Sequence record: NC_028847.1
Strand: one strand, 5' to 3'
Length of the DNA stretch: 64,000 bases
From: Escherichia phage QL01
The notes below the pieces were generated by a model. It was given only the letters and a program-made list of their open reading frames with translations. It was not told where the DNA came from and ran no database searches. A program made the translations under genes and the position numbers. Below are positions 1,837 to 63,998 of this stretch, in pieces. How positions within the stretch are numbered: position 1 is the first letter of the stretch; every line of letters starts with the position of its first letter.

Positions 1837-2430
1837 TTACTTAAGTGAATTAATGTAGTCTTCGATATCAGCAGAAGTCGTATCCATTCCAACTTGCGGG
1901 CCTTTAAACGTTTCTACGCGCAGTAGGGTGTCTTCAATATCAATCTTGGTCAGTGCAGCGATTTCAACAACATCGTCGGCAGTAGCAATACCAAGGGCAG
2001 CCATATTACGAGTTTCACGGATGTACTCGAGCTTAACAGCCAGTTCCTGACGAGAGTCATCAAGTTCCTTAACCTTCAGTTTAATTTCATTACGCATTTC
2101 GATATAATCATCGGCTTTCTTCCGAAGCTGAGTAGCTGTACGACGATAAAGGAGACCGAGTTTAGCATGTACCTGGACATCAGAGCCTTCGGCAATCAGT
2201 TTACGAATTTCACGTTCTTTAGAAGCAGCGAGCTGGTCCTTTTCATTAGCCAAAGCACGAATACGTTTTTCTTCATTCACAGACTTAACATGAGCAGTCT
2301 GGAGTTCAGTGATTTTATCAATCAGAGTAGAAGCAGCTTTGGTGTATTGGTCTTCGATTGACAGGTTCTGAGTCATTGCGGTGCCCAGTTTAGAACGAAT
2401 GAATTCAACGATTTTCTTTAAAGTGTTCAT
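1837..2430 (-). CDS. coiled-coil protein, possibly PspA/IM30-like
   Basis: 197 aa, long heptad-rich helical sequence; PspA resemblance is by eye only. Confidence 0.5.
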
Positions 2431-2506
2431 AGTATTTCCTTCAGTTGGTTAACGTTTTGTAATCCATGAGGACATTATACCCTGTCCTCTGAGGTTTGTA
2501 AACATT

Positions 2507-2905
2507 TTATTTCATTTTTGCGAGGCAGATTTCATTGGCTTCCCATTGAGCTTGCTTAATAATAGCTTTGGATACAGGAACCCTTTGGCCATAAGTTTTT
2601 GATGTTGAGAGAACAATATGTTTGTTTGCTTCATTATGCCAGCCCCATGATTTTTCGCCATGAGTACCTTTAACTACAGCTGACACCTCAACAGAGCAAC
2701 CACCATCAGAAATCTTGGTTTCGACAACCCATTCATTTCTCTCGACAGCTTCAATTTCCAATCTAGTTTTTTCTTCATACATCGCGGCCCAATCAGTTTT
2801 TGCCAAGTTGAAAGCAAGAGCTTTCTCTAATTCTTTGGCATATTTTTGTTGTTCGGGTGTTAATGAATTATACAACTCTTGCATTTCTTTATCTTCGATA
2901 TTCAT
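2507..2905 (-). CDS. hypothetical protein
   Basis: 132 aa ORF. Confidence 0.5.
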   Translation of the reverse strand: MNIEDKEMQELYNSLTPEQQKYAKELEKALAFNLAKTDWAAMYEEKTRLEIEAVERNEWVVETKISDGGCSVEVSAVVKGTHGEKSWGWHNEANKHIVLSTSKTYGQRVPVSKAIIKQAQWEANEICLAKMK

Positions 2906-2964
2906 TATGTTCTCCTCAAATTATGGGGCTCATAATATCTTAATAATGAGCCCATGTAAACGTT

Positions 2965-3228
2965 TTATTTCATATTATTGAAATAATTTTCTGCATCAAA
3001 ATCACTACCATGGTAAACTTTGGTAGACGATTTGGCGTAACCTTCAGCTGAGAACATATTAATCACAACTTTAATTGTATACCACTGTCCATCTTCATTA
3101 CCCATTACTGCATAGGTTTCATACACCGGGTGTTCAGGACCGATAACCTTAATATCGTTAACTGTGGCACCAAATTCTTCCGGAACACATTTCATAAAGA
3201 AATTAAACACTTCACCATAATTATCCAT
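2965..3228 (-). CDS. hypothetical protein
   Basis: ORF track start is GTG at 3243; ATG at 3228 has GGAGAG RBS; early promoter cassette immediately upstream. Confidence 0.5.
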   Translation of the reverse strand: MDNYGEVFNFFMKCVPEEFGATVNDIKVIGPEHPVYETYAVMGNEDGQWYTIKVVINMFSAEGYAKSSTKVYHGSDFDAENYFNNMK

Positions 3229-3263
3229 TTTACTCTCCTTCACTCTGTTGTTTTGATAGGTCT

Positions 3264-3292
3264 ATAGTATCATGTTCTACGAAAGAGTAAAC
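3264..3292 (-). promoter_or_regulatory. T4-type early promoter cassette (GTTTAC -35, TACTAT -10), copy 1 of 5
   Basis: minus strand reads GTTTAC-N16-TACTAT then agacctatcaaaac leader; same cassette at 6381, 6949, 41601, 57436. Confidence 0.5.
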
Positions 3293-3311
3293 ATCTTTTT
3301 TAAACCTTTTA

Positions 3312-3344
3312 GAAACAAAAAAGGCCCAACCTTTCGGAAGGGCC
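3312..3344 (-). terminator. intrinsic terminator (hairpin with GAAA loop plus U-run), copy 1 of 3 identical hairpins
   Basis: ggcccaacctttcggaagggcc at 3323-3344; A-run on plus strand gives U-run on minus strand. Confidence 0.5.
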
Positions 3345-3349
3345 TAGAA

Positions 3350-3904
3350 TCAGTTCTTGTAGAACCGGAATGGGTTTATGTGGAAGGCTAACATAGCCTT
3401 AGGGATTTTACGAGACAAAAGGCTCTTAAGCTTCCAACCACAGTACACGCGAAGGTAAAAGGTAATCCCACCAACCTTAAGATATGGAACTGAAGCAAAT
3501 ACACCCCAGGCGTCGTCATTCCACATCCATAACCACCCGTGATGAGCTTTATCAGGAGAACCGGATTCCACGTCGGGATTACCTCGATAATGGAATTCCG
3601 AGCTACAATCACGACCGAGTTTATGGTAAGCAAAGTTATAAGCTTTATTTCGCCATAGCCAAGCTACTCTCTGAAGATAAACACCACCCGGCATTTTCCT
3701 GATGTTAGCCCAACGTTTAATATGACCTTTATCACCGTCAATTGGATTATCGTATGTCATCATCCAATCAAAGCCGTACGGTAATTTACCTGTCTTTTTA
3801 TTGTGGAAAGGAACCACAAATGGTGCAAGGATAACAGCCAGAACCATAGAGATAAAATCCAGTGGAACCAACAGAACCCAACTCAAATATTTTAAAAGTT
3901 TCAT
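3350..3904 (-). CDS. hypothetical protein with N-terminal hydrophobic segment
   Basis: ORF 3350..4009 trimmed to ATG at 3904 (MKLLKYLSW...), downstream of terminator hairpin. Confidence 0.45.
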   Translation of the reverse strand: MKLLKYLSWVLLVPLDFISMVLAVILAPFVVPFHNKKTGKLPYGFDWMMTYDNPIDGDKGHIKRWANIRKMPGGVYLQRVAWLWRNKAYNFAYHKLGRDCSSEFHYRGNPDVESGSPDKAHHGWLWMWNDDAWGVFASVPYLKVGGITFYLRVYCGWKLKSLLSRKIPKAMLAFHINPFRFYKN

Positions 3905-3920
3905 ATATTTCTCTAAGTTA

Positions 3921-3943
3921 ACCAAAAAGCCCCAGACGGGGCT
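3921..3943 (-). terminator. terminator hairpin after internal-protein gene
   Basis: gccccagacggggc hairpin at 3929-3942 flanked by A/T runs on both sides. Confidence 0.45.
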
Positions 3944-3947
3944 TTCG

Positions 3948-4412
3948 TTATTTGATTTGTTTAGCAGACCAGATACGGTCTTTGATGATTTTCTGAATAT
4001 CTTCAACATACTCTAAGTCGTGAGCATGTGGATTATCTTTGAAGCTATGTGCTCGTGCCAGTTTCTGGCCTTCTGTTTTGATTACTAAAAGCTCTTTAAG
4101 AATTGCTTCATACTTAGAAATAATTCCTTTGGCGATATTTTTTTCTTGAGCGGCTTTAGGGTCCGCTTTTGACGCAGGTGCTTTACCTGTAGCTTTCTGG
4201 AACAATTCACCTGAGGCAGCTAGGCTTTTAAAAACTCGGCTAACAGTATTGGCATTAGTAAAACCTTCGGCTTTAAAATCTTTAATAAAACGGAAACGTT
4301 CTTCATCAGAGGCGTCTTTGTAAGAATATTTACCTGCTTGAATTGCTGCAATCGCAGCGGCTTTTACATCTGAACTAGATTGTTCAGTCAAAAATTCATT
4401 GTAAGTTTTCAT
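3948..4412 (-). CDS. internal protein (IP-like) with capsid-targeting N-terminus
   Basis: starts MKTYNEFLTE, matching the T4 IP capsid-targeting sequence as recalled (MKTYQEFIAE); own late promoter and terminator. Confidence 0.7.
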   Translation of the reverse strand: MKTYNEFLTEQSSSDVKAAAIAAIQAGKYSYKDASDEERFRFIKDFKAEGFTNANTVSRVFKSLAASGELFQKATGKAPASKADPKAAQEKNIAKGIISKYEAILKELLVIKTEGQKLARAHSFKDNPHAHDLEYVEDIQKIIKDRIWSAKQIK

Positions 4413-4857: not shown

Positions 4858-4932
4858 TGGTATCCCGCCCTGGGATCGAACCAGGACCGCAAACTTAGAA
4901 GGATCGTATGCTATCCATTACACCAGCGGGAC
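4858..4932 (-). tRNA. tRNA-Arg (anticodon UCU)
   Basis: 75 nt cloverleaf folded by hand: acceptor GTCCCGC/GCGGGAT, T-arm CCTGG-TTCGATC-CCAGG, anticodon loop CTTCTAA, encoded CCA. Confidence 0.85.
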
Positions 4933-4937
4933 GTAGT

Positions 4938-5014
4938 TGGTGACCCAGACCAGATTTGAACTGGTAACCTTTCCCTTATGAGGGGACTGCTGCTAACCAT
5001 TGAGCTACAGGGCC
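4938..5014 (-). tRNA. tRNA with CAU anticodon (Ile-lysidine type or Met)
   Basis: 77 nt: acceptor GGCCCTG, T-arm ACCAG-TTCAAAT-CTGGT, anticodon loop CTCATAA, encoded CCA; 5 nt from tRNA-Arg. Confidence 0.75.
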
Positions 5015-9766: not shown

Positions 9767-10602
9767 TATGCCTTCTTCCAAACTTTCTGAGCTGAATAAC
9801 GCTTACCTTTCGATACAAATTGCTGAAGTGGTAATCCTATTACATTAGCCCAATCAGATGGTTTTATCTCTACTAAAGGTCCCTTAATATTTCCAGGGAT
9901 ATAAGCCTTAATCATCACGTCGGCGCCAGCGAATCCTTTTACCTTACTCCAATCGATTTTTAATTTAGTCGAGTTCGTAATGGTAGGCGTACTCGCGTAT
10001 TGCTTCAGCAATTCTTCCAGAAATTGCTGACGTGCTTTAGGTGGAATATAGTGTAAGTTCAGTCCGTACATTAAATTATGCTTACCTAACCCAAGATAAA
10101 TTATTAAAGGATATTTGTCCCAGTATGGTAGGGTATCCTTATGTTTGGCATCATAGATATAAGCATAAAGCTTACCAGGAGACGGTTTAGATACCTGGTG
10201 TCCACGAATTCCTTTCTTTAATGTTTCTGTAAACCATTTAGCTGATTTATTGTTTACGGCAGCGCCTTCGTTAGCAATCTTATCGCGAATACTCTTTCTA
10301 AAACTATTCACCAAAATTAATTGACGTTCGGCTTTGGTTAATTTATTGCCAGGTTTCTTCTGAAGTTTTTCAACCTGTACAGCAGTTTTAATTCGACTCG
10401 AGTATCGAGACATCGCAGATGTAAAGCTAGAATACTTGATGCCTTTATCTTCAGCGAATTTCTTAGCCGAAACACCTTTAGCCTTAGCGTTGGCATATTC
10501 AACGCCTAAAGTTATCCATTGTTGTTCTGAACGAGTAGGCTTGGAACCTTTTGTAGTTTCAGTAGCCTCGTTGATGTAAGAAAATATACTCATCCTTTCC
10601 AT
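9766..10602 (-). CDS. 2: gp2 DNA end-protector protein
   Basis: 278 aa, synteny and size (T4 gp2 about 274 aa). Confidence 0.7.
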
Positions 10603-11039
10603 CCTAATTTTTTCAGTGAGTTTTCGGTAATCAATCTGAAATTAATTCCCATTTTATCTGCTGTAGCTTTAGCAGCTTTCCATTTATCTTTATTTACACT
10701 CCATGTATAATGTTCGTTGATATATCTCTTTTTAGCAGCTGTAGTCATTTTAGCAGGCGCCGCTGGAGGATGGGTCTCTTTAAAAGGTTTGACTTCGAAA
10801 AAGAATTGTTGACCATTGTCGAACTTCACCCAGAAGTCCATAAAATACCGACGTTTCTTTCCATCAGCGTTACTAAAATATGGAATCACAACCTCTTCCG
10901 AGTTCCACTGGACGACATTAGGATGGTTGTCAAGCCAACGCATAAGCCATGCTTCCCAAGAGGAACGATATTGGATTTTCTTCCAATCACCTTTATATTT
11001 TTGTAAGTTTGTAGGTTTAAATTTCCCTGAGTAGGCCAT
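10590..11039 (-). CDS. 4: gp4 head completion protein
   Basis: 149 aa, synteny and size (T4 gp4 about 150 aa); late promoter upstream. Confidence 0.7.
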
Positions 11040-11049
11040 AGTGCCTCCT

Positions 11050-11057
11050 TATAAATA
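11050..11057 (+). promoter_or_regulatory. late promoter TATAAATA for gp53
   Basis: exact TATAAATA about 28 nt upstream of gp53 ATG. Confidence 0.6.
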
Positions 11058-11064
11058 TTAATAT

Positions 11065-11072
11065 TATTTATA
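11065..11072 (-). promoter_or_regulatory. late promoter TATAAATA for gp4 (divergent)
   Basis: exact TATAAATA on minus strand about 26 nt upstream of gp4 ATG. Confidence 0.6.
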
Positions 11073-11084
11073 CTCGGAGGCACT

Positions 11085-11687
11085 ATGCTCTTCTCATTTT
11101 TCGATCCTATAAATTACGAATCAAAAACAGTCAAGCCAGATTCCGGCTCATTAACTGATGCCGATGTACTGAGCGTACCGATGACTGATATATTTAGAAA
11201 CTATAAAGAATATTTTGATAAAGTGGCTAAAAATTATACACTTAAAACATATTATATCAGTGGGGCCCCTCGTCCAGAAGAATTAGCCCATCAACTTTAT
11301 GGTAACGTGCAATTATATTGGGTTTTATTGATGTGTAATAACGTATATGACCCTTATTACGGCTGGATTACAGGCCAAGAATCTGCGTATCAAGCAGCTA
11401 TTCAACGTTATGCTACTGCAGGCGGAAACCAAGTCCTTTATCATGTCAATGAAAAGGGTGAGAAATTCTGGAATCTAGTAAATACTCCGGAAAATCCTTA
11501 TACTTGGTACGATAAAGGTGATACAGAAAAACGTTATCCTCAATATGAAGGTCCTTTGGCTGCAGTAGATATTTACGAGGACGCCATTCGTAAAAATGAA
11601 TATAAGCGCGAAATAAAGATTATAGACCCTAATGACATCGAGTCCTTTGTTTCCGCTTTAATTAGAGAAATGGAGAAAGCCCTCTAA
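11085..11687 (+). CDS. 53: gp53 baseplate wedge protein
   Basis: 200 aa, MLFSFFDPINYESK..., close to recalled T4 gp53; start of conserved late gene run. Confidence 0.9.
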   Translation: MLFSFFDPINYESKTVKPDSGSLTDADVLSVPMTDIFRNYKEYFDKVAKNYTLKTYYISGAPRPEELAHQLYGNVQLYWVLLMCNNVYDPYYGWITGQESAYQAAIQRYATAGGNQVLYHVNEKGEKFWNLVNTPENPYTWYDKGDTEKRYPQYEGPLAAVDIYEDAIRKNEYKREIKIIDPNDIESFVSALIREMEKAL

Positions 11688-13429
11688 TGATTAACATGTC
11701 TGATAATGTAAGTTGGTTCGTCGGTGTAGTTGAAGACCGAATGGACCCACTCCAACAAGGCCGAGTACGCGTGCGCGTATGGGGTATGCATCCATATGAA
11801 AAAGTACAAGGCCCTGTAAAAGGCCTTCGTACAGAAGATTTACCATGGATGTCGGTATTAATGCCTACATCTTCTGCCTCTGTTTCAGGTATCCAAACCG
11901 CTATGACTGGTATGGTCCCCGGTACACAAGTTTATGGTCACTTTCTTGATAAGTGGAAATTAAACGGACTTGTCCTTGGTACATACGGTTCCGCTTCAAG
12001 ACAGAAGGCTAATCCTAATGAAGGGTTTAGTGACCCTACAGGCCAATATCCGCTTTATTTAGGTAACGATGCTGCTGCTTTAAACCGAGGTGGTGAAGTT
12101 GGATACGATGCCACTTCTAACGTAATACAAGATGCAAACACTGATGTAGGTATTAATCCTGACGGGTTGGATTTAAGTCAAGTCAAACCAGACGATAATC
12201 CTAATTTCACAATAGAAAACATGCTTCATCGTGATGAAGGGCTTAGACTGAAGGTATATTGGGATACCGAAGGTTATCCTACTATAGGTATAGGCCACCT
12301 TATCACACCACAACCTATTAGAGATATGAATCGAATAAACAAAATATTATCTAATCAGGTAGGACGAGAAGTTAAAGGTAACCCTGGTGCAATATCAATG
12401 GATGAGGCTTCTAAATTATTCCAAGAAGACCTTAAAAAAGTCCAAAACGATATAGGTCGGCATAGTGTTGTAGGTCCTGTTTACAATAAAGAAAACCGTT
12501 CAAGACAAATGGCTCTTGAAAACATGGCTTTCCAAATGGGATTAGGTGGATTGGCTAAATTCCGTGGAATGCTTAGTGCAATGCTAATAGGCGATTATAA
12601 AAAGGCATTTGAGGAAGCTCGTAATTCAGTATGGTTTAACCAAACTAAAGGTCGCGCATCAAGGGTGTCAATGATTATCCTCACAGGTAACATGGAATCA
12701 TATGGTATTATGGCCCCTAAAGAAAGGTCATTTAATGGCCGTTCGTATAGAATGATTCAAACCTTTGTGGCCCCTACAAATTCAGACCCTGCCGACCCGT
12801 GGACTCCAGAAGACACAAGGATTCTTTTTAAAGAACCTGATTCTAGTTATAAAGGCGAATATCCATATGTCCAAACCATGCAAACTGAAGGCGGGCATAT
12901 CCAAGAATTCGATAATACCCCAGGGCAAGAACGATACCGTTTAATCCATCCTACCGGTAGTTATGAAGAAGTTGCTCCTGATGGACGTAAAACTTCTAAG
13001 ACGGTAGCCGATGGTTATTATATGACCCAAGGCGATTCAAATACTTATGTTGGTGGTAATAATAAAGTCAACGTTGGTGGCGATGAAACCTATTATAATA
13101 TGGCAAACGTGCGTCGTCAGACTGATGGAAACGAAACCATCCATATTCGCGGTAATGAAGAGAAAACTGTAGAAGGTAATGGCACCCTTCGTGTTAAAGG
13201 TAATGTTACTGTTATTGTTGAAGGAAATGCTGATGTTACTGTTAAGGGTGATGCAACTACCTTAGTTGAAGGTAATGAAACTCGTACGACCAATGGTAAT
13301 TTAAATTGGACAGTAAACGGTACCGTTTCTTGGACTTGTGCAGGTGCGTGGTCCGAGACTATGGCTTCAATGAGTTCTATTGCATCTGGTCAATATACTA
13401 TTGATGGTTCGAGGATTGACATTGGCTAA
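11687..13429 (+). CDS. 5: gp5 baseplate hub / tail lysozyme
   Basis: 580 aa with lysozyme motif EGYPTIGIGHLIT and C-terminal beta-helix VxGxxxV repeats. Confidence 0.9.
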   Translation: MINMSDNVSWFVGVVEDRMDPLQQGRVRVRVWGMHPYEKVQGPVKGLRTEDLPWMSVLMPTSSASVSGIQTAMTGMVPGTQVYGHFLDKWKLNGLVLGTYGSASRQKANPNEGFSDPTGQYPLYLGNDAAALNRGGEVGYDATSNVIQDANTDVGINPDGLDLSQVKPDDNPNFTIENMLHRDEGLRLKVYWDTEGYPTIGIGHLITPQPIRDMNRINKILSNQVGREVKGNPGAISMDEASKLFQEDLKKVQNDIGRHSVVGPVYNKENRSRQMALENMAFQMGLGGLAKFRGMLSAMLIGDYKKAFEEARNSVWFNQTKGRASRVSMIILTGNMESYGIMAPKERSFNGRSYRMIQTFVAPTNSDPADPWTPEDTRILFKEPDSSYKGEYPYVQTMQTEGGHIQEFDNTPGQERYRLIHPTGSYEEVAPDGRKTSKTVADGYYMTQGDSNTYVGGNNKVNVGGDETYYNMANVRRQTDGNETIHIRGNEEKTVEGNGTLRVKGNVTVIVEGNADVTVKGDATTLVEGNETRTTNGNLNWTVNGTVSWTCAGAWSETMASMSSIASGQYTIDGSRIDIG

Positions 13430-13439
13430 TATTTTACCT

Positions 13440-13961
13440 ATGAGCACAGATTTAGGAGACTCCATGGAAGGAGCCTCAATCGATGTTACGTTTACTGCTC
13501 AATTAGAAACAAACGAAACATTAGTTGAAATAAATATAACAGAATATGAGCCTACAGAAGGCATTATTGTCGATGGAGCTCATTTATATGGAACCTACGA
13601 ATCGGTATTTGGATTCTCTGAAGATGCCTTGAAATATCGATTAAACGATGAATTTAAAACAGCCGGTTCATGGAAAGACTTACCAGGCGATAGTAACACT
13701 CAATTATACCTCTGGAAAGCCCCTAGTAATCTCCAGAAGACGTTTTCTTACACAGTCACATTAATCTATGACTTTCAAGAAGAGTCATCAGGAGGTGATA
13801 CAGGGAACTCAGGCGGTAGTAATTCTAGGGCCGGTAGCGAAATAGACCCTCCTCCGGCTCCTGTAAGAAAAACCCTTACTAAGGTTTATACCAAGGTTAT
13901 TGTCGGTAATTGGTCCAAATGGGCAAATCAATTAAGAGAATACGTATATGCGAGGCCATAA
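13440..13961 (+). CDS. 5.1: gp5.1-like protein
   Basis: ORF 13380..13961 trimmed to ATG after gp5 stop; position between gp5 and gp5.4. Confidence 0.55.
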   Translation: MSTDLGDSMEGASIDVTFTAQLETNETLVEINITEYEPTEGIIVDGAHLYGTYESVFGFSEDALKYRLNDEFKTAGSWKDLPGDSNTQLYLWKAPSNLQKTFSYTVTLIYDFQEESSGGDTGNSGGSNSRAGSEIDPPPAPVRKTLTKVYTKVIVGNWSKWANQLREYVYARP

Positions 13962-26890: not shown

Positions 26891-26898
26891 TATAAATA
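26891..26898 (+). promoter_or_regulatory. late promoter TATAAATA for gp13
   Basis: exact TATAAATA about 22 nt upstream of gp13 ATG. Confidence 0.55.
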
Positions 26899-57082: not shown

Positions 57083-57089
57083 CAAAAAA

Positions 57090-57107
57090 GGAGAGCATAT
57101 GCTCTCC
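57090..57107. terminator. bidirectional terminator hairpin between gp54 and minus-strand ORF
   Basis: ggagagcatatgctctcc perfect palindrome flanked by A-run upstream and T-rich run downstream. Confidence 0.5.
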
Positions 57108-57116
57108 TTTAGGGGT

Positions 57117-57407
57117 TTATTTACGGAACGAAATGAAACCTGCTGCAGTCATTAATGGCTGCTTTTTAACAAAGACCGTGATAGAAATAGGAGCTTCAGA
57201 TTCGAGTTGTCCTGTCACTACACCGTTAAAAATGTTTTCGGTTTGTTCTGGATAAGAAAAATTCTCAACAGGTCGGATATCAAACTGTTTGTCTTCACCG
57301 AAAACTCGACGTAATTCATTACCTACGGCACTGTCAAACTCTTCGGAAGCAGGGATAACGTTTTCAACTACCAGTTCTTGACCATTAAAACGGAATGCAG
57401 ATTTCAT
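57117..57407 (-). CDS. hypothetical protein with its own early promoter
   Basis: 96 aa; early promoter cassette copy 5 and GAGGAG RBS upstream. Confidence 0.5.
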   Translation of the reverse strand: MKSAFRFNGQELVVENVIPASEEFDSAVGNELRRVFGEDKQFDIRPVENFSYPEQTENIFNGVVTGQLESEAPISITVFVKKQPLMTAAGFISFRK

Positions 57408-57435: not shown

Positions 57436-57465
57436 ATAGTACCACATCCTTGTGGTGTTGTAAAC
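57436..57465 (-). promoter_or_regulatory. T4-type early promoter cassette, copy 5
   Basis: GTTTAC ... TACTAT taccttacacaaac on minus strand, overlapping the stop of the upstream alt-like gene. Confidence 0.5.
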
Positions 57466-59588
57466 TACATTTTGAATTTATTTGATAAAGAAGAGATATC
57501 CAAAGACGCGGCAAGGATTTCCATAGCTTCGTTGCTTTCAGAAACGGATTCATTAACCAAGAATTGACTAAATCCATCCATCAGGCGAACTTCACCAGTT
57601 TCCATCAAATGGTCACCATCGTAAACAGATTCGCTGAGCTCTGAAGGAGGCGTTACGGTAGCTTCCATAAGGTATTTGTGAGATACTCTATCATTCATGG
57701 CAAAAGCCGCTACTTTATCAACCTTCAACAATAATCCACGCGGAAGGATAATTTCTGCTTCTTCGGCATATTCTGTAAGGTCACCAGGAGCGATAACTTT
57801 AACTGCTTCAGCACCTCGAATAACCATACCAATTTCAGCAATTCTATCTGCAGGACCTTCAGGTGCAATTGGATTACCAAACTCGTCTTCTTCCCATTCT
57901 ACCTCTTCGTCATCGACTTCACCCACATCAGATGAACTACCACTAGCCAATTTAAACAACTCATCAGCGGAGGACAAAGAACCTTCACCACCAACAAAAA
58001 CGGCTTGGTTGTCGAGGGCCATATAATTTTTACCGAATTCACCAAAGATGTTAGGCTTTAATGAGGCTGACACAAAGTTCTTAAAGTAAAATGTTTTGTT
58101 ATCGATATTATGGCGCAGAATTTTGTATGGCAAATCCTGACCACGATACAAAATAGTACCCTTAGGAAGTTTAATACCCTTAGTAAATGCTGAGTCTAAA
58201 TCCTTAATCAATTTAATAGCCGTTGTATTGTTTTCGGATTCAGGTTTACCTAAAAGGAATAAGTTCATAGGAGCATATTCAGCCGCGCAATATTCAATAA
58301 TAGCATTGCTTTCGTCTTTGGTTAGGTCCTTAGGTTTAATGAGCTCGCCTGAATAAGCATATGCATCACTAATAGAATCGTTAACCAGTTTATAAACGGC
58401 TTCCATAGCGAAAGCAATTCTAGATGCTTTCTCTGAAGGGGAACCCTTAAAACGGGTACTCAGGTTATTAACAATTTTCTTAATAATATCCAGACTATTG
58501 GTTGTATTGATTTGCGAAAGGCCACTTAAAAGTCTATCGACTTCTGTATTAAAAAATGCCATATTATTAGAGTAAATTTCAAACCCTTGTTTATCTCTAT
58601 TAGCATAATTTAGTTTAAATTTACTATCAGTCATTAAAGCGTGTGTGAGAGCAATAGTGTATCTAAAGTTGGCAAGGTCCTCGCTCTTAGATTTAAACTG
58701 AGAAGCCTGACGCATTTTAGTAATGGCACCTTTTTTAAAGTTCTGACTAATCTGTTCAATACCTTCGTTCTCAGGGCCTTCAGCCGTGTGAACCGGTACA
58801 GAAGCTTCAAACTCGTTATAAACCTGCAATTCTTTAGGGGACAAAGTTTCAGGCTCAGCAGTAGAATACTGCGCGGCCGCAGCCATACGACGCGAAATCT
58901 TAGTACGAGAGATAACGGCCTTATCAGTACGTTTCTCTTCAACTTGTGCAATAGATGCCGCTACGGCTTCTACTTTACTTACGGCCTGGCCTGTTTTCTT
59001 AGAAACATACACTTCGCCAACTTTAGACTCAACTTTAGTATAAAGATCGGCATTAATTTCAGGCATACCCTTGATATCTTCAATATTAGCACCGCGACGT
59101 ACTAAAAGAACGTAGGTATGTTTTCCGCTGAATTGGAACATGTCGTCAACAACTTTAAACTTACCACCGGTACGAGCCATAGCCAAACGAGCTAATACGC
59201 GCTGAACGGTAGGACCTTTACCTTTCATTTTCTTAGTAGGGAAACGGAATAAAACCGCGTCCATTTTAAGTTTGATTATTTGTTCATATATGGTATCGAA
59301 AATGGTGTTCAGTGTACCGAGTGGATCGGTACCCAAACCACCCTTGAGTTCTGCCGGAGCGCCTTTAGCAGATAAACTCATTAAGATAACATGGACGTAC
59401 TTATCGCCATTTTTAACCATCTTAATAGCGTCGCCTTCGGACGCATAAGATACCATACGTGCTACTAAATTGTCATTACCAGGAGCATGTACCGCAAAAA
59501 TCTGCGGTACGCCTGAGCCAGGTTTAAGATTTGTTACCGGATAGTTTTTAGCGGAATCGCTATCAAAAACTTCGTTTAAATTTTCCAT
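57465..59588 (-). CDS. Alt-like ADP-ribosyltransferase, copy 1
   Basis: 707 aa; N-terminal about 235 aa near-identical to copy 2; C-terminal R (YRG), STS-like (SASL) and E (EAEIILPRG) ART motifs. Confidence 0.8.
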   Translation of the reverse strand: MENLNEVFDSDSAKNYPVTNLKPGSGVPQIFAVHAPGNDNLVARMVSYASEGDAIKMVKNGDKYVHVILMSLSAKGAPAELKGGLGTDPLGTLNTIFDTIYEQIIKLKMDAVLFRFPTKKMKGKGPTVQRVLARLAMARTGGKFKVVDDMFQFSGKHTYVLLVRRGANIEDIKGMPEINADLYTKVESKVGEVYVSKKTGQAVSKVEAVAASIAQVEEKRTDKAVISRTKISRRMAAAAQYSTAEPETLSPKELQVYNEFEASVPVHTAEGPENEGIEQISQNFKKGAITKMRQASQFKSKSEDLANFRYTIALTHALMTDSKFKLNYANRDKQGFEIYSNNMAFFNTEVDRLLSGLSQINTTNSLDIIKKIVNNLSTRFKGSPSEKASRIAFAMEAVYKLVNDSISDAYAYSGELIKPKDLTKDESNAIIEYCAAEYAPMNLFLLGKPESENNTTAIKLIKDLDSAFTKGIKLPKGTILYRGQDLPYKILRHNIDNKTFYFKNFVSASLKPNIFGEFGKNYMALDNQAVFVGGEGSLSSADELFKLASGSSSDVGEVDDEEVEWEEDEFGNPIAPEGPADRIAEIGMVIRGAEAVKVIAPGDLTEYAEEAEIILPRGLLLKVDKVAAFAMNDRVSHKYLMEATVTPPSELSESVYDGDHLMETGEVRLMDGFSQFLVNESVSESNEAMEILAASLDISSLSNKFKM

Positions 59589-59591
59589 TAT

Positions 59592-61637
59592 TTACCCTTG
59601 GATGAATTTTTCTGGCGTTTCGTCAAAATTAATACATGAAGCTAAAATAGGCATTATATCCACCTTGGTCGATTTGACGAATGAATCAAAAGACACAGGG
59701 TTGTCGGTCTCTGTTTCTACGCCTTGGTAAACAACCAATTCGCCGGTTTCCATCAATGCATCACCATCATAGATAACCGCATTTTCTGCTAGTTGGTCTG
59801 TGGTCTGGATATCAGCTTCCAATAATTTGGTGTTGTAGTTTCCTTTATATGAGGCATCTGTAATTTTAGTAATCTTAACAGTAGTTCCACGTGGAAGAAT
59901 AACCTCTTGTTCTGTTGGAGAACCTGACAATTTACCTGGCACAATTACGTTAATAGAGTCTGCACCGGAAATTTTCCAACCGATGTTCATCATTGTATTT
60001 TCGGAACTCGTCAGCATACTTGGAAGAACAATTTCATTATCGCCTTGGAAAGATGTCCCAGCGCGATAGTCCTGATGAACTGCGGCCATTGCGACGTTTG
60101 ATACCCAGCCGCCAAAGATAATCGGCTTAAGGGACGTTGATACATAGTTCCTGAAATAAAACAATTTTGAGTGTTTGATTTTATCAAAAGTGTTAACATT
60201 TAAATATTGACCACGCCAAAGTGTAATATCAGGTGGCAATTTATGGCCAATTTCAAATGCTGCATCCATATCATTAATTACTTCAATTACACGATAACTA
60301 TCAATAAATTCTGCATCCTCTTCATAATAATTACCCAACAAATAATTATTAACATCGGTATAATATTGGCCACAATAAGAAGAAATAGCCTCACGCTGCT
60401 CATACTCAAATCGATTATCGCTATAACTGGCTGTAAAATGCATAACACTTTCTGACGCTTCATTAGCAAAGTCGGTAACAGCAGCACTTATACGTTGAGC
60501 ATACTCTTGTTCCCAAAGCTCTGCTGCATATTCTGCCGCATCCATATTAGGAGGAGCCTCATTCATTTTTCTTTCAATAAATGCAGCTTTGCGAAGGTTA
60601 AGAACCTCTGCACATGATTCGGCAAAAATCTGCATCTGCTTCATACTGCCGACAGGAGCACGTTTAAGTTCACGATGCATACGGTTAAAAATTGGGTCAG
60701 AGTCTTCGACTCGAATTTCTTCTTTCCAAACACCGTTTGCTCGCATAGCCATATCTGCCGCGCGCATACGCTCCATAGTATTCGTTTCAGAAGGTTGAAT
60801 AAAAATTTCTAGTTCTTCATAATCATCGATAAGTTCCGCTGTTGCTGGGGCACTAAATTTTGATGCCTCTGCATCAATCTCATTCCAACCTTCCGGAACT
60901 TCATCTCGAGGAGAATACTGGGCTGCGGCTACAGCACGCCTAGAAATCTTAGTAGTAGTAATAACGGCCTTATCCGTACGTTTTTCTTCGACTGCCGCTA
61001 TACTAGCAGATAGTGCTTCTATTTTGGTTACCGATTGGCCTGTTTTCTTGGATACATAAACCTCACCAACTTTAGACTCAACCTTAGTGTAAAGGTCTGC
61101 ATCAATTTCAGGCATACCTTTTATGTCCTCAATATTAGCTTGTTTACGGACCAGTAAAACGTATGTATGTTTGCCTGTAAATTGATACATATCATCGACA
61201 ACTTTAAACTTGCCGCCAGTACGAGCCATCGCCAAACGTGCCAATACACGTTGAACAGTAGGACCCTTACCTTTCATTTTCTTGGTAGGGAACCGGAAAA
61301 GAACTGCATCCATTTTAAGTTTGTTTACTTGTTCGTATACAGTATCAAAAATGGTATTCAGCGTACCAAGTGGGTCAGAACCTAACCCACCTTTCAACTC
61401 GGCTGGGCTACCCTTAGCAGACAAACTCATCAAAATAACATGAACATATTTGTCGCCCGGCTTAACCATTTTAATAGCGTCTCCTTGAGACGCATAAGAT
61501 ACCATACGAGCAACCAGATTATCATTACCTGGTGCTTGGATAGAGAAAATCTGTGGAATACCGGAACCCGGTTTAAGATTTGTTACTGGATAGTTTTTAG
61601 CGGAATCACTATCAAAAACCTCATTTAAATTTTCCAT
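59592..61637 (-). CDS. Alt-like ADP-ribosyltransferase, copy 2
   Basis: 681 aa; conserved N-terminus MENLNEVFDSDSAKNYPVTNLKPGSG; WRG, STSL, QEVILPRG motifs. Confidence 0.8.
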   Translation of the reverse strand: MENLNEVFDSDSAKNYPVTNLKPGSGIPQIFSIQAPGNDNLVARMVSYASQGDAIKMVKPGDKYVHVILMSLSAKGSPAELKGGLGSDPLGTLNTIFDTVYEQVNKLKMDAVLFRFPTKKMKGKGPTVQRVLARLAMARTGGKFKVVDDMYQFTGKHTYVLLVRKQANIEDIKGMPEIDADLYTKVESKVGEVYVSKKTGQSVTKIEALSASIAAVEEKRTDKAVITTTKISRRAVAAAQYSPRDEVPEGWNEIDAEASKFSAPATAELIDDYEELEIFIQPSETNTMERMRAADMAMRANGVWKEEIRVEDSDPIFNRMHRELKRAPVGSMKQMQIFAESCAEVLNLRKAAFIERKMNEAPPNMDAAEYAAELWEQEYAQRISAAVTDFANEASESVMHFTASYSDNRFEYEQREAISSYCGQYYTDVNNYLLGNYYEEDAEFIDSYRVIEVINDMDAAFEIGHKLPPDITLWRGQYLNVNTFDKIKHSKLFYFRNYVSTSLKPIIFGGWVSNVAMAAVHQDYRAGTSFQGDNEIVLPSMLTSSENTMMNIGWKISGADSINVIVPGKLSGSPTEQEVILPRGTTVKITKITDASYKGNYNTKLLEADIQTTDQLAENAVIYDGDALMETGELVVYQGVETETDNPVSFDSFVKSTKVDIMPILASCINFDETPEKFIQG

Positions 61638-61640
61638 TAT

Positions 61641-63725
61641 TTACCCTTGGATGAATTTTTCTGGGATGTCATAGAGGTCTATGCATGAAGCCAAAAGAGG
61701 CAGTACATCAAACCGTGTAGATTTAACAAATGAATCAAAAGATAAGGGGCTTTCGGAAGTATCGAAGTCATCTTGATATACGACCAACTCGCCGGTTTCC
61801 ATTAGTACATCACCATCATATACCACAGATTCTTGAAGCTCATCTGTTGTCATAACTTCAGCTTGAATGAGTTTTGTATTACTAGATGTTGTTCCATCAT
61901 TATTAGAAGCATCTGTTATTTTATTAACTTTGACCATTAATCCACGCGGTAGAATAACTTCGGCTTCAGTTGCTATTCCGAGATTTCCTGGATATACGAC
62001 ATTAACTTTATGGGCCCCATCAATAGCCCATCCTATTTGAACTTTAACATAATCAGGATTTTCTTTATATGCTCTTATTTCATTAGGATTAATAGTTATT
62101 CCTTCTTCATTTTTATCGACTGTCAATTCATTGCGAACTTCAGGTTCTAAAAGACCGATACCAGCGTGCGTAACACCAAAACGTCCGAAAATTATAGGGG
62201 TCAATGAAGTGGATACAAAATTTCTAAAATAAAACACTTTATTTTTAACTAGTGCTTCGTATATAGGAGCAGTCATACTCTGGGCACGATAAACTGTGAT
62301 GCCCTCTGGTATACGGTCGCCATTTTCAAAAGCAGAATCCAAATTATTAACTGCAGATTCGATATCTTTTTCGCTCATAACCTCATAGTTCTGAGGATTA
62401 TAACGTCCTAAAAGAAGATTATTTATGTCTGTATATCCTGAACCACAATATTCTCTGATACCACGCTTTTGTGATGGAGTATATTTAGAACCCTCACGAG
62501 CAATAGTAATATCGACCATAATACCGCCACCTACACCAGCAAAACTATACACGCGTTTTTTAATGAACTTGGTCTTGGCCGCTTTCCACTTGGCCTCTGT
62601 CAATTCGTTCCAAAGGTCATCAGGTTGGCCTTTACGGGTTCTGTTATGAATAGCCAGCCACTCGCCTTTGTATTCTTCGAAAATGGTATTAATAGTAGAG
62701 GCATATTTTTCTAGGGCTTTAACAGATGTCAAAGGTTCGTTTTTGATGGCCGTAAGGATTTTCTCTTTAATTTTCTCTTGGATTTCGCCAATACCGTGAA
62801 GTGGGAACAATTTGTAATCGTAATGCAATTCTTCAGCAGTGCCTTCAGCCACTATATTAGCAACCTTATTTTTAGCCGCAGGAGAATTGTTATTAGTAAC
62901 CATTTCCTGAGCCTCAGGGATTAATGGAACTGTTGCCGGTTTATTAAAATCTACTGCAGTAGCTTCATATTTCTTAAACAGCTCACTTTCATTACGATAA
63001 GATTCTAACGATTGACTTGCTGCAATGGCACGTCGAGAAATCTTAGTCTTGGTTATAACCATTTTATCAGTGCGACGTTCTTCAACCTTAGCAATACTAC
63101 CGGCAATAGCAGTTTCTTTAGTAACCTGCATGCCTTCTTTTTTGGAAATATAAACTTCGCCGACATCAGAATCTACCTTAGTATACAATTCAGCATTAAT
63201 TCCAGGCATACCTTTGATATCTTCTATATCAGCTTGTTTACGAACTACCAGGATGTAAGTATGTTTACCGGTAAATTGGTACATAGCCGGAACTACTTTA
63301 AAACGTCCACCTGTTTTCTGTGCTACCAAACGTTGGATAATCCGTTGAACGATAGGGCCTTGACCTTTCATTTTCTTAGTAGGGAAACGGAACATCACGG
63401 CATCCATACGAAGCTTTTTAACTTGGTCATAAACCACATCAAAAATAGTATTAATCGCATCTACGGGAGTAGGGCCTAGGCCACCTTTAAGTTCGGCAGG
63501 CGAACCTTTAGCTGAAAGGCTCATAAGGATAACGTGGGCATATTTATCACCCATCTTAACCTGTTTAATAGCATCACCTTCAGAAGCGTAGGATACCATA
63601 CGCGCCACTAATTGGGATTCTGCGTCACCAATCTTCCAAATCTGGGGTACTTTAAGTTTTGGGTTCAAGTTTACTGTAGGCAGTGTGCCTTCGGACTCAA
63701 ACACTTCATTTAATTGTTCGGTCAT
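61641..63725 (-). CDS. Alt-like ADP-ribosyltransferase, copy 3
   Basis: 694 aa; N-terminus MTEQLNEVFESEG more diverged; YRA, STSL, EAEVILPRG motifs; C-terminal tail PEKFIQG shared with copy 2. Confidence 0.8.
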   Translation of the reverse strand: MTEQLNEVFESEGTLPTVNLNPKLKVPQIWKIGDAESQLVARMVSYASEGDAIKQVKMGDKYAHVILMSLSAKGSPAELKGGLGPTPVDAINTIFDVVYDQVKKLRMDAVMFRFPTKKMKGQGPIVQRIIQRLVAQKTGGRFKVVPAMYQFTGKHTYILVVRKQADIEDIKGMPGINAELYTKVDSDVGEVYISKKEGMQVTKETAIAGSIAKVEERRTDKMVITKTKISRRAIAASQSLESYRNESELFKKYEATAVDFNKPATVPLIPEAQEMVTNNNSPAAKNKVANIVAEGTAEELHYDYKLFPLHGIGEIQEKIKEKILTAIKNEPLTSVKALEKYASTINTIFEEYKGEWLAIHNRTRKGQPDDLWNELTEAKWKAAKTKFIKKRVYSFAGVGGGIMVDITIAREGSKYTPSQKRGIREYCGSGYTDINNLLLGRYNPQNYEVMSEKDIESAVNNLDSAFENGDRIPEGITVYRAQSMTAPIYEALVKNKVFYFRNFVSTSLTPIIFGRFGVTHAGIGLLEPEVRNELTVDKNEEGITINPNEIRAYKENPDYVKVQIGWAIDGAHKVNVVYPGNLGIATEAEVILPRGLMVKVNKITDASNNDGTTSSNTKLIQAEVMTTDELQESVVYDGDVLMETGELVVYQDDFDTSESPLSFDSFVKSTRFDVLPLLASCIDLYDIPEKFIQG

Positions 63726-63779
63726 AATAATTCCTCTTTAATAACCTTATTTATGCCAGAAAAGGCCCGAAGGCCTTTA

Positions 63780-63998
63780 TTAAAGTACTAACAGCGTACG
63801 GTACACTTCAAATTTAGGACCCTTTTCATAGCGGTCGAAATTATCTTTAAAATCAGCGAACGCGATTTCATTTTCAAATTCAAGGACAATTTGGGACACT
63901 GCAGTGGAGACATCCCCACCTTCTTTATATCCAATAACCACGGTTTCTAAATAAGCTTTCATATTATAGACCAGTTTGAGACCAATCACCGAATACAT
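63780..63998 (-). CDS. hypothetical protein (may extend beyond window end)
   Basis: 72 aa ORF upstream of the alt array; terminator-like hairpin ggcccgaaggcc between it and alt copy 3. Confidence 0.4.
   Translation of the reverse strand: MYSVIGLKLVYNMKAYLETVVIGYKEGGDVSTAVSQIVLEFENEIAFADFKDNFDRYEKGPKFEVYRTLLVL

Follow-up and report, generated by a model that had tools for sequence, protein, structure and literature searches.

Three tandem Alt-family ADP-ribosyltransferase genes in Escherichia phage QL01, with apparently resident ends and exchanged bodies

Alt is the textbook example of an enzyme injected by a phage together with its DNA. In phage T4, where Alt (gpalt; UniProt P12726) is a head-packaged NAD:arginine mono-ADP-ribosyltransferase, mass spectrometry has mapped two cuts by the protease gp21, one at ITE-6 with loss of six residues and one at LTE-619 with loss of 63 (PMC5694885, PMC9026906). 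T4 Alt, the one family member with known targets, modifies R265 of the RNA polymerase alpha subunit, R84 of MazF and others (PMC8120803). T4-like phages have been known since 2006 to carry duplications of alt (PMC1524935), which is all that a literature search of incomplete coverage returned on multi-copy alt loci; it found no paper describing the pattern of exchange reported here. We analysed a 64,000-nucleotide (nt) stretch of Escherichia phage QL01 (NC_028847.1; the whole stretch is called the window), in which three alt genes, A1, A2 and A3, stand in tandem. Coordinates are window positions, and features located by them are on the minus strand unless stated otherwise. We consider it likely that these genes form an array of Alt-family arginine-type mono-ADP-ribosyltransferases whose ends are resident in the phage lineage and whose bodies have been exchanged, and which would be injected as T4 Alt is. 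The genes themselves are not new, being ordinary and already annotated members of the Alt family; their value lies in the comparative pattern.

Three intact Alt-family genes at the T4 alt site

A preliminary description of this DNA, made from the letters and their translations, reported three back-to-back minus-strand genes of 707, 681 and 694 amino acids (aa), and the open reading frame (ORF) list of the window holds exactly these, all intact and 3 nt apart. The array's first gene, A3 (61641–63725, 694 aa), is the orthologue of T4 and RB14 Alt over its whole length. The second, A2 (59592–61637, 681 aa), is a chimera that joins an N-terminal module of Dhakavirus type to a body of Gaprivervirus (VR7) type. 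The third is A1 (57465–59588, 707 aa), whose orthologues are RB14 'alt.-2' and, in truncated form, alt.-1/alt.-2 of T4. The array occupies the canonical T4 alt site between alt.1/gene 30 (ligase) and alt.-3/gene 54, in a synteny common to T4, RB14, VR7 and IME08. Its flanks are T4-like, with genes 29, 48 and 54 on the plus strand followed by alt.-3 (DUF5498), the alt genes and alt.1.

Membership of the Alt family, as first proposed, was confirmed with the curated Pfam gathering score of PF03496 (23.4 bits), which A1, A2 and A3 all exceeded (63.2, 74.9 and 124.8 bits; E = 3e-17, 7e-21 and 4e-36). When the three proteins were aligned with T4 Alt, the columns of the catalytic residues, numbered R482, S507-A-S509 and E610-x-E612 in A1, were invariant. 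The R / S-T-S / E signature ascribed to every copy needs one correction: all three have R and E-x-E, and A2 and A3 have S-T-S, but A1 reads S-A-S, a change that is fixed across the whole A1 type (12 sequences). Among 150 family members, R was kept in 149 and E-x-E in all. The A1 ADP-ribosyltransferase (ART) domain also carries a disordered acidic insert (aa ~519–577; predicted local distance difference test, pLDDT, <50 in the AlphaFold2, AF2, model). Over the ART domain and C-terminus, the three copies are 35–46% identical.

The array shares with T4 Alt its locus, its three-part layout, the R / S-T-S / E-x-E motifs, the positions of the (L/I)-x-E motifs, and an upstream hairpin and late-promoter motif. 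A3 can be aligned with T4 Alt over its full length (47% identity), and its body is nearer to that of RB14 Alt, the ART domain and C-terminus being 85% identical to RB14 Alt and 60% to T4 Alt. Unlike T4, which has one alt and a truncated remnant, the window has three full-length genes, and the bodies of A1 and A2 are of other paralogue types. The earlier remark that T4 carries a single alt is therefore literally true but incomplete, as T4 retains a truncated second copy (alt.-1/alt.-2). According to the T4 record, these two genes go back to an old duplication that took in the first part of alt; they sit where the second alt copy stands in RB14.

By sequence, the best relatives of solved structure are the enzymatic components of binary toxins and the C3-like exoenzymes (VIP2, iota Ia, CdtA and C3; PF03496), with which the array has the ART fold family and the arginine-type E-x-E in common. 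A sequence search of solved structures matched toxin ART domains only; Alt itself has no solved structure. Unlike binary toxins, the array has no B-component gene near it, and delivery would be by ejection from the phage head. The two tandem ART-fold domains of binary toxins were not seen either, as the region upstream of the A1 ART core is all-helical in the AF2 model, with no second beta-sandwich. Separately, a family profile (A2 positions 234–505) gave an alignment with iota Ia, CdtA and VIP2 that extends upstream into the adaptor domain at the toxins' N-terminus, whereas the A1 middle is modelled as helices throughout. Constant parts that serve incorporation or delivery, flanking a variable functional part swapped through recombination at conserved boundaries, are also found in mosaic T-even tail-fibre adhesin genes and in polymorphic or MuF-fused delivery and effector proteins (PMC5512222, PMC9503650). 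The array differs from those systems in that the variable part is internal with resident segments on both sides, the copies are in tandem, and Pfam scans found no MuF domain. Alt-family ARTs do not occur in genuine polyvalent proteins (PMC5512222).

Ends and bodies of the three proteins

In the architecture that we propose, each protein would begin with an alpha/beta N-terminal module of ~235 aa, headed by a (L/I)-x-E prohead-protease site. An exchangeable body would follow, made of a helical domain and the R / S-x-S / E-x-E ART core, and then a C-terminal tail of ~55–65 aa starting at a second (L/I)-x-E site. Breakpoints were placed by a maximum-likelihood three-segment fit to codon-aligned DNA, with nt identity given per segment. 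T4 Alt and RB14 Alt broke at residues 247 and 607 (0.97/0.59/0.96), A3 and KIT01_205 at 255 and 620 (0.89/0.55/0.97), A2 and VR7 Alt at 247 and 640 (0.49/0.79/0.54), and A3 and RB14 Alt at 405 and 630 (0.59/0.89/0.55). The breakpoints thus cluster at residues 247–255 and 607–640. Baseline nt identity in the flanking genes was ~60% to T4 and RB14 and 71–80% to VR7, so that the A3 ART core (aa ~405–630), for example, is 89% nt-identical to RB14 Alt between genes that are ~60% identical. Because identity changes in steps against these baselines, we infer exchange of an internal segment between phages. The exchanged segment appears to run from about a dozen residues past the KISRR that ends the N-terminal module to residue ~607–640 and to move between genera too, leaving the module and the last ~55–75 residues resident. 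A further exchange point is suggested at the boundary of middle and ART domain (~405).

The domains of these genes also have incongruent relationships. Similarity of the N-terminal module and the ~60-aa tail usually follows phage lineage; that of the body follows paralogue type, irrespective of genus. Modules of Dhakaviruses are 62–100% identical among themselves and at most 46% identical to those of other genera; the N-termini of A1, A2 and IME08 altb are 89–93% identical, against 39% for A2 and VR7. T4 Alt and RB14 Alt have modules that are 99% identical, and that of RB14 alt.-2 is 67% identical to these. By type, the A3 body matches T4 and RB14 Alt, the A1 body RB14 alt.-2, and the A2 body the Alt of Gapriverviruses. 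Other genomes with two or three alt copies repeat the pattern, with N-termini 64–90% and bodies 21–47% identical.

A similar contrast is seen within Tequatrovirus. T4 and RB14 (alt at 11455–13503 of locus L001 and 2211–4304 of locus L003, respectively) are 97–99% identical in the flanking genes 48 and 54, and their Alt proteins are 36% identical in the middle and 72% in the ART domain between identical ends. As the two Alt proteins differ so much between near-identical flanks, the Alt of laboratory T4 is one of several Tequatrovirus body alleles.

The N-terminal modules lie at 58887–59588 in A1 (aa 1–234, with KISRR at the end), 60936–61637 in A2 (aa 1–234) and 63030–63725 in A3 (aa 1–232). 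A module common to all three copies had been proposed, with the third more diverged, and protein identities over alignment columns 1–245 agree: 89% for A1 and A2, 66% for A1 and A3, and 70% for A2 and A3. The three modules are 42–47% identical to the N-terminus of T4 Alt, and the precomputed family PF26846 was listed on all homologues. The near-identity claimed for copies 1 and 2 holds for the protein but not for the DNA, which is 79% identical, with synonymous sites nearly saturated (proportion of synonymous differences, pS, 0.655; synonymous divergence, dS, ~1.55; non-synonymous divergence, dN, 0.078) and a longest exact run of 20 nt within the module.

Each module opens with L-N-E, at residues 4–6 in A1 and A2 and 5–7 in A3. 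The suggested likeness to the (L/I)-x-E prohead-protease pattern was borne out as a motif, as the predicted sites, LNE-6 in A1 and A2 and LNE-7 in A3, align with the mapped ITE-6 of T4 (PMC5694885). At the position of T4 LTE-619, the proteins have LSE-653 (A1), LAE-618 (A2) and LQE-632 (A3). Both motifs are kept in the family, the N-terminal one in 149/150 members and the C-terminal one in 147/150. Being at the T4 Alt cut positions, these motifs are predicted processing sites of A1, A2 and A3. The tails after the predicted C-terminal sites lie at 57465–57629 in A1 (54 aa and the stop codon), 59592–59783 in A2 (63 aa and the stop) and 61641–61829 in A3 (62 aa and the stop). The ends that appear resident in the window proteins would thus coincide with the processed ends of T4 Alt.

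The exchangeable bodies between these ends lie at 57630–58886 in A1 (aa 235–653, an all-helical domain and then the ART core), 59784–60935 in A2 (aa 235–618) and 61830–63029 in A3 (aa 233–632). Their middle regions, 8–18% identical among the three copies, had been called unrelated. Profile-profile comparison detected no relation of the A1 middle to that of A2 or A3, in keeping with that claim, but showed A2-type and A3-type middles to be diverged homologues (hhalign probability 98.5%, E = 2.5e-15). The A1-type middle is homologous to that of a 631-aa type in WG01 (91.8%, E = 7e-7). The A1 middle has full-length homologues in 444 records; those at 44–46% identity come from about 400 records, mostly Tequatrovirus by name. 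That of RB14 is annotated alt.-2, to which A1 is 46% identical in the middle and 60% in the ART domain. The A2 middle was found in just 52 records and is 81–82% identical to that of the sole Alt of Gapriverviruses such as VR7, the ART domain being 73% identical to VR7 Alt.

The AF2 model of A1 residues 236–707 (pLDDT 78.5; predicted template modelling score, pTM, 0.80) is helical over aa ~250–470 (pLDDT 82–95), before the ART beta core. It superposes as a single unit on the 'split' Alt of Acinetobacter phage ZZ1 (template modelling score 0.67/0.68) and on SP18 alta. A 'split' Alt, with one ORF for the N-terminal module and another for the helical and ART domains, is annotated in Acinetobacter phages ZZ1 and Henu6, Aeromonas phage 50AhydR13PP and Citrobacter phage CF1. 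Such genes would support the body as an independent unit; if the splits are real, they raise the question of how a separate body would be packaged.

The preliminary description saw a cassette system, in which a constant packaging and catalytic scaffold carries swapped middle regions. The domain incongruence and the sharp breakpoints support a cassette-like organisation, but what stays constant is the two ends, N-terminal module and C-terminal tail, and the catalytic core is not among them: the ART domain travels with the middle domain or is exchanged beside it. If these proteins behave as T4 Alt does, A1–A3 would be incorporated into the core of the prohead, cut near both termini by a gp21-type protease and injected with the DNA, and would then ADP-ribosylate host proteins, the three different bodies presumably giving three different target sets. 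The end parts would stay with the phage lineage as the body passes horizontally between phage genera, and recombination in the repeated N-terminal module would add, remove and reshuffle copies.

Several points weigh against this reading. The VR7 module is only 37–43% identical to all others, though the flanking genes of VR7 are 80–87% identical to those of the window; N-terminal modules therefore also come in types, and their tracking of lineage is not absolute. The near-saturated synonymous sites of A1 and A2 mean that homogenisation is not ongoing across the whole module. Packaging, cleavage and activity of A1–A3 are extrapolated from T4 Alt, and it is we who infer that targets diverge between the bodies. 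A role of the module in head targeting has not been established even in T4, and the role of both propeptides was left open there (PMC5694885).

More tentatively, the lineage-specific N-terminal module and the C-terminal propeptide might together act as an adaptor for virion loading and ejection, such that any ART body inserted between them is packaged and injected. We think this possible rather than probable. If it were true, the trading of bodies and changes of copy number would tune which host proteins are disabled at DNA entry; defence toxins such as MazF might be among them. Nature here supplies a ready experiment, in which three to five Alt bodies can stand in for one another between a common pair of ends. 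The pattern points to the N-terminal module and C-terminal propeptide as the parts likely needed for head loading, and to the helical domain and ART core as those setting the target range. It also gives a rational basis for designs that load foreign proteins into T4-type capsids. Host range or evasion of defences may depend on the Alt bodies carried, which is relevant to the choice of therapeutic coliphages.

The N-terminal module and alternative explanations of the array

The A1 module is modelled by AF2 as an alpha/beta fold (pLDDT 87, pTM 0.86). A hidden Markov model (HMM) of the module, searched against 1.84 billion representatives, matched only 70 clusters, always at the extreme N-terminus (residues 1–20) and mostly in proteins of 600–712 aa. 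Ten matches of atypical length were scanned with Pfam for fusions of the module to non-ART domains; 4/10 have an ART domain and others ART-like motifs, most having one or the other. A word-indexed protein search with the module alone matched one truncated protein. One metagenomic protein of 541 aa (P0183) has a clear Alt N-terminal module (E = 5e-25) and neither an ART motif nor a Pfam domain in its C-terminal 350 residues, and is a candidate for a non-ART effector on an Alt N-terminal handle.

By structure, the fold may be more widespread. Foldseek against BFVD found it at the N-termini of unannotated proteins (TMq 0.43–0.62, E = 1e-5 to 1e-8) of 180–1280 aa from unrelated myovirus groups (Ackermannviridae, Vibrio phages and jumbo phages), such as Dickeya phage RC-2014 (A0A075E0T7), Erwinia phage phiEa2809 (A0A0A0YVG6), Vibrio phage VP-1 and Agrobacterium phage Atu_ph07. 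Deaminase or Zeta-toxin domains are annotated on some of the proteins that matched more weakly (E ~1e-3 to 1e-2). From these model comparisons, in which the matches are modest, the Alt N-terminal fold may be a general delivery domain.

The module could instead be a second functional domain active inside the host, perhaps GNAT-like and serving to bind a ligand or transfer acyl groups; it would then be conserved within a lineage through a shared host or phage partner and not be mainly a packaging or delivery handle. An invariant G123, in K-x-x-G-x-G between a strand and a helix, occupies the position of GNAT motif A, and the module remains on the mature T4 protein, from which only six N-terminal residues are removed (PMC5694885). 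However, Pfam and PDB profile searches gave no GNAT signal at the sequence level, and a partner inside the virion fits the lineage-specific pattern at least as well. We regard a host-acting module as unlikely.

A plain old tandem duplication under uneven constraint, with no cassette exchange or recombination, would also leave three related genes, and alt duplications are indeed old and widespread (PMC1524935). Strong constraint would account for the near-saturation of synonymous sites in the A1 and A2 modules at so low a dN. It would not explain the incongruence of A2, whose N-terminus is 89–92% identical to those of A1 and altb and 39% to that of VR7, with a body 73–81% identical to that of VR7, nor the step-like identity profiles of pairs such as T4 and RB14 Alt, nor an A3 ART core so far above the RB14 baseline.

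The modules themselves are mosaic, which plain duplication leaves equally unexplained. At 180 diagnostic sites separating the A1 and A2 N-termini of phage C6, long A2-type runs were found in A1-type genes, with switch points that differ by phage. In IME281, the A1-type gene carries A2-type sites as far as ~nt 250; in IME08, JS10 and dhaeg they extend to ~nt 190 and continue in patches to ~nt 420; and in WG01, a genome without A2, they reach ~nt 260. In the window, A1 has an A2-type patch at ~nt 20–50 and A2 an A1-type patch at ~nt 265–300. Since the switch points differ between phages, recombination has occurred repeatedly. The two-copy loci, with their A2(5')::A1(3') hybrid gene, resemble outcomes of unequal crossing-over, reciprocal insertion being possible for any single case. 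Recombination through near-identical N-terminal DNA, as the preliminary description put it, is thus upheld by mosaics within the module, but the DNA concerned is only 79% identical. We consider duplication without exchange to be improbable.

Recent gene conversion was also considered as the source of the similarity between the A1 and A2 N-termini, and was rejected for the module as a whole on its near-saturated synonymous sites; short converted patches do exist. Exact repeats of 41 nt mark both gene junctions. The first (61624–61664) spans the end of A3 (…PEKFIQG), its stop codon, ATA and the start of A2, with AAGGG as the likely ribosome-binding site, and the second (59575–59615) spans the end of A2, its stop codon, ATA and the start of A1.

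Another alternative is that only A3 works as an injected enzyme, A1 and A2 being redundant or decaying toward the state of T4 alt.-1/alt.-2. T4 has lost its second copy, several Dhakaviruses have no A2, and A1 has its S-A-S and long disordered acidic insert. Yet all ORFs, R and E-x-E are intact, the S-A-S is fixed in the A1 type, and A1-type middles persist at full length in the 444 phage records. Among Dhakavirus orthologues, omega (dN/dS) was 0.01–0.22 in every domain of every gene, so none of the three looks to be decaying, and it was 0.01–0.16 in the A1 and A2 bodies. Positive selection was not seen in the middle domains among close orthologues (omega 0.02–0.16). An array with A3 alone at work is, in our judgement, very improbable.

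Finally, misassembly can create tandem repeats, and phage 04086 shows an artefactual duplication with Ns in its A1-type gene, but an assembly artefact, the condition named at the outset as one that would overturn the array, has practically no chance here, because the copies are diverged (DNA at most 79% identical, bodies unrelated) and the same array recurs in many genomes, among them the independently sequenced C6, MX01, AnYang and KIT01.

Relatives, expression signals and further observations

Judged from its matches, the window comes from a Dhakavirus, one of the T4-type coliphages that resemble JS98. The closest matches to the 7-kb array region are Escherichia phages C6, fDHCT2 and MX01, at 96–97% identity over the full 7 kb. 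The window's arrangement is that of C6, MX01, AnYang and KIT01 (93–97% nt identity), whose GenBank entries, inspected directly, already annotate three 'Alt-like RNA polymerase ADP-ribosyltransferase' genes; three Alt genes are also annotated in fDHCT2 and UGJNEcP3/4, according to the table of sequence-search matches. The window differs from C6 and KIT01 in the short A2-type converted patch at the 5' end of its A1.

Copy number and order vary among relatives. The order A3, A2, A1 was found in the window phage, C6, AnYang and KIT01, the last with a variant A3 body. WG01 and ABTNLS3 have the fourth, 631-aa type followed by A3 and A1, and WG01-type phages have no A2. IME08, JS10, IME281 and dhaeg have A3 and A1. 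Two-copy loci are labelled alt and alt.-2 in RB14, and alta and altb in JS98, JS10 and IME08. A four-copy array in Escherichia phage 04086 (OR842557.1; extract 10291–12853) was considered and rejected. In its A1-type gene, part of the N-terminal module is repeated in tandem and Ns occur; this extra sequence most likely reflects misassembly where the alt modules repeat.

Upstream, the array is flanked by an alt.1 homologue (63780–63998; PF24647), 65% identical to T4 alt.1. After alt.1 comes a hairpin, AAAGGCCTTCGGGCCTTT (63761–63778), which T4 has in identical form ahead of its own alt; a terminator preceding alt has been described as conserved (PMC1524935). A late-promoter-like motif, cATAAATA (63748–63755), lies 22 nt upstream of the A3 start codon, and T4 has its counterpart, TATAAATA, at the same place. 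No such motif was found directly upstream of A2 or A1. Given a late-promoter-like motif upstream of A3 only, the 3-nt spacing and the identical junctions with their ribosome-binding site, A1–A3 probably share a single late transcript and are translationally coupled on it. On the downstream side are an alt.-3 homologue (57117–57407; DUF5498), 59% identical to T4 alt.-3, and after it a terminator-like hairpin (57087–57110), the likely end of the transcription unit.

Elsewhere in the window, the exact T4 late-promoter motif TATAAATA occurs 19 times against 8 expected, a count reached in 0/100 shuffles, and the matches are concentrated on the plus strand at 26891–47254. Adjacent genes for tRNA-Arg(tct) and tRNA-Met(cat), confirmed by ARAGORN and Rfam, lie on the minus strand at 4858–5014.

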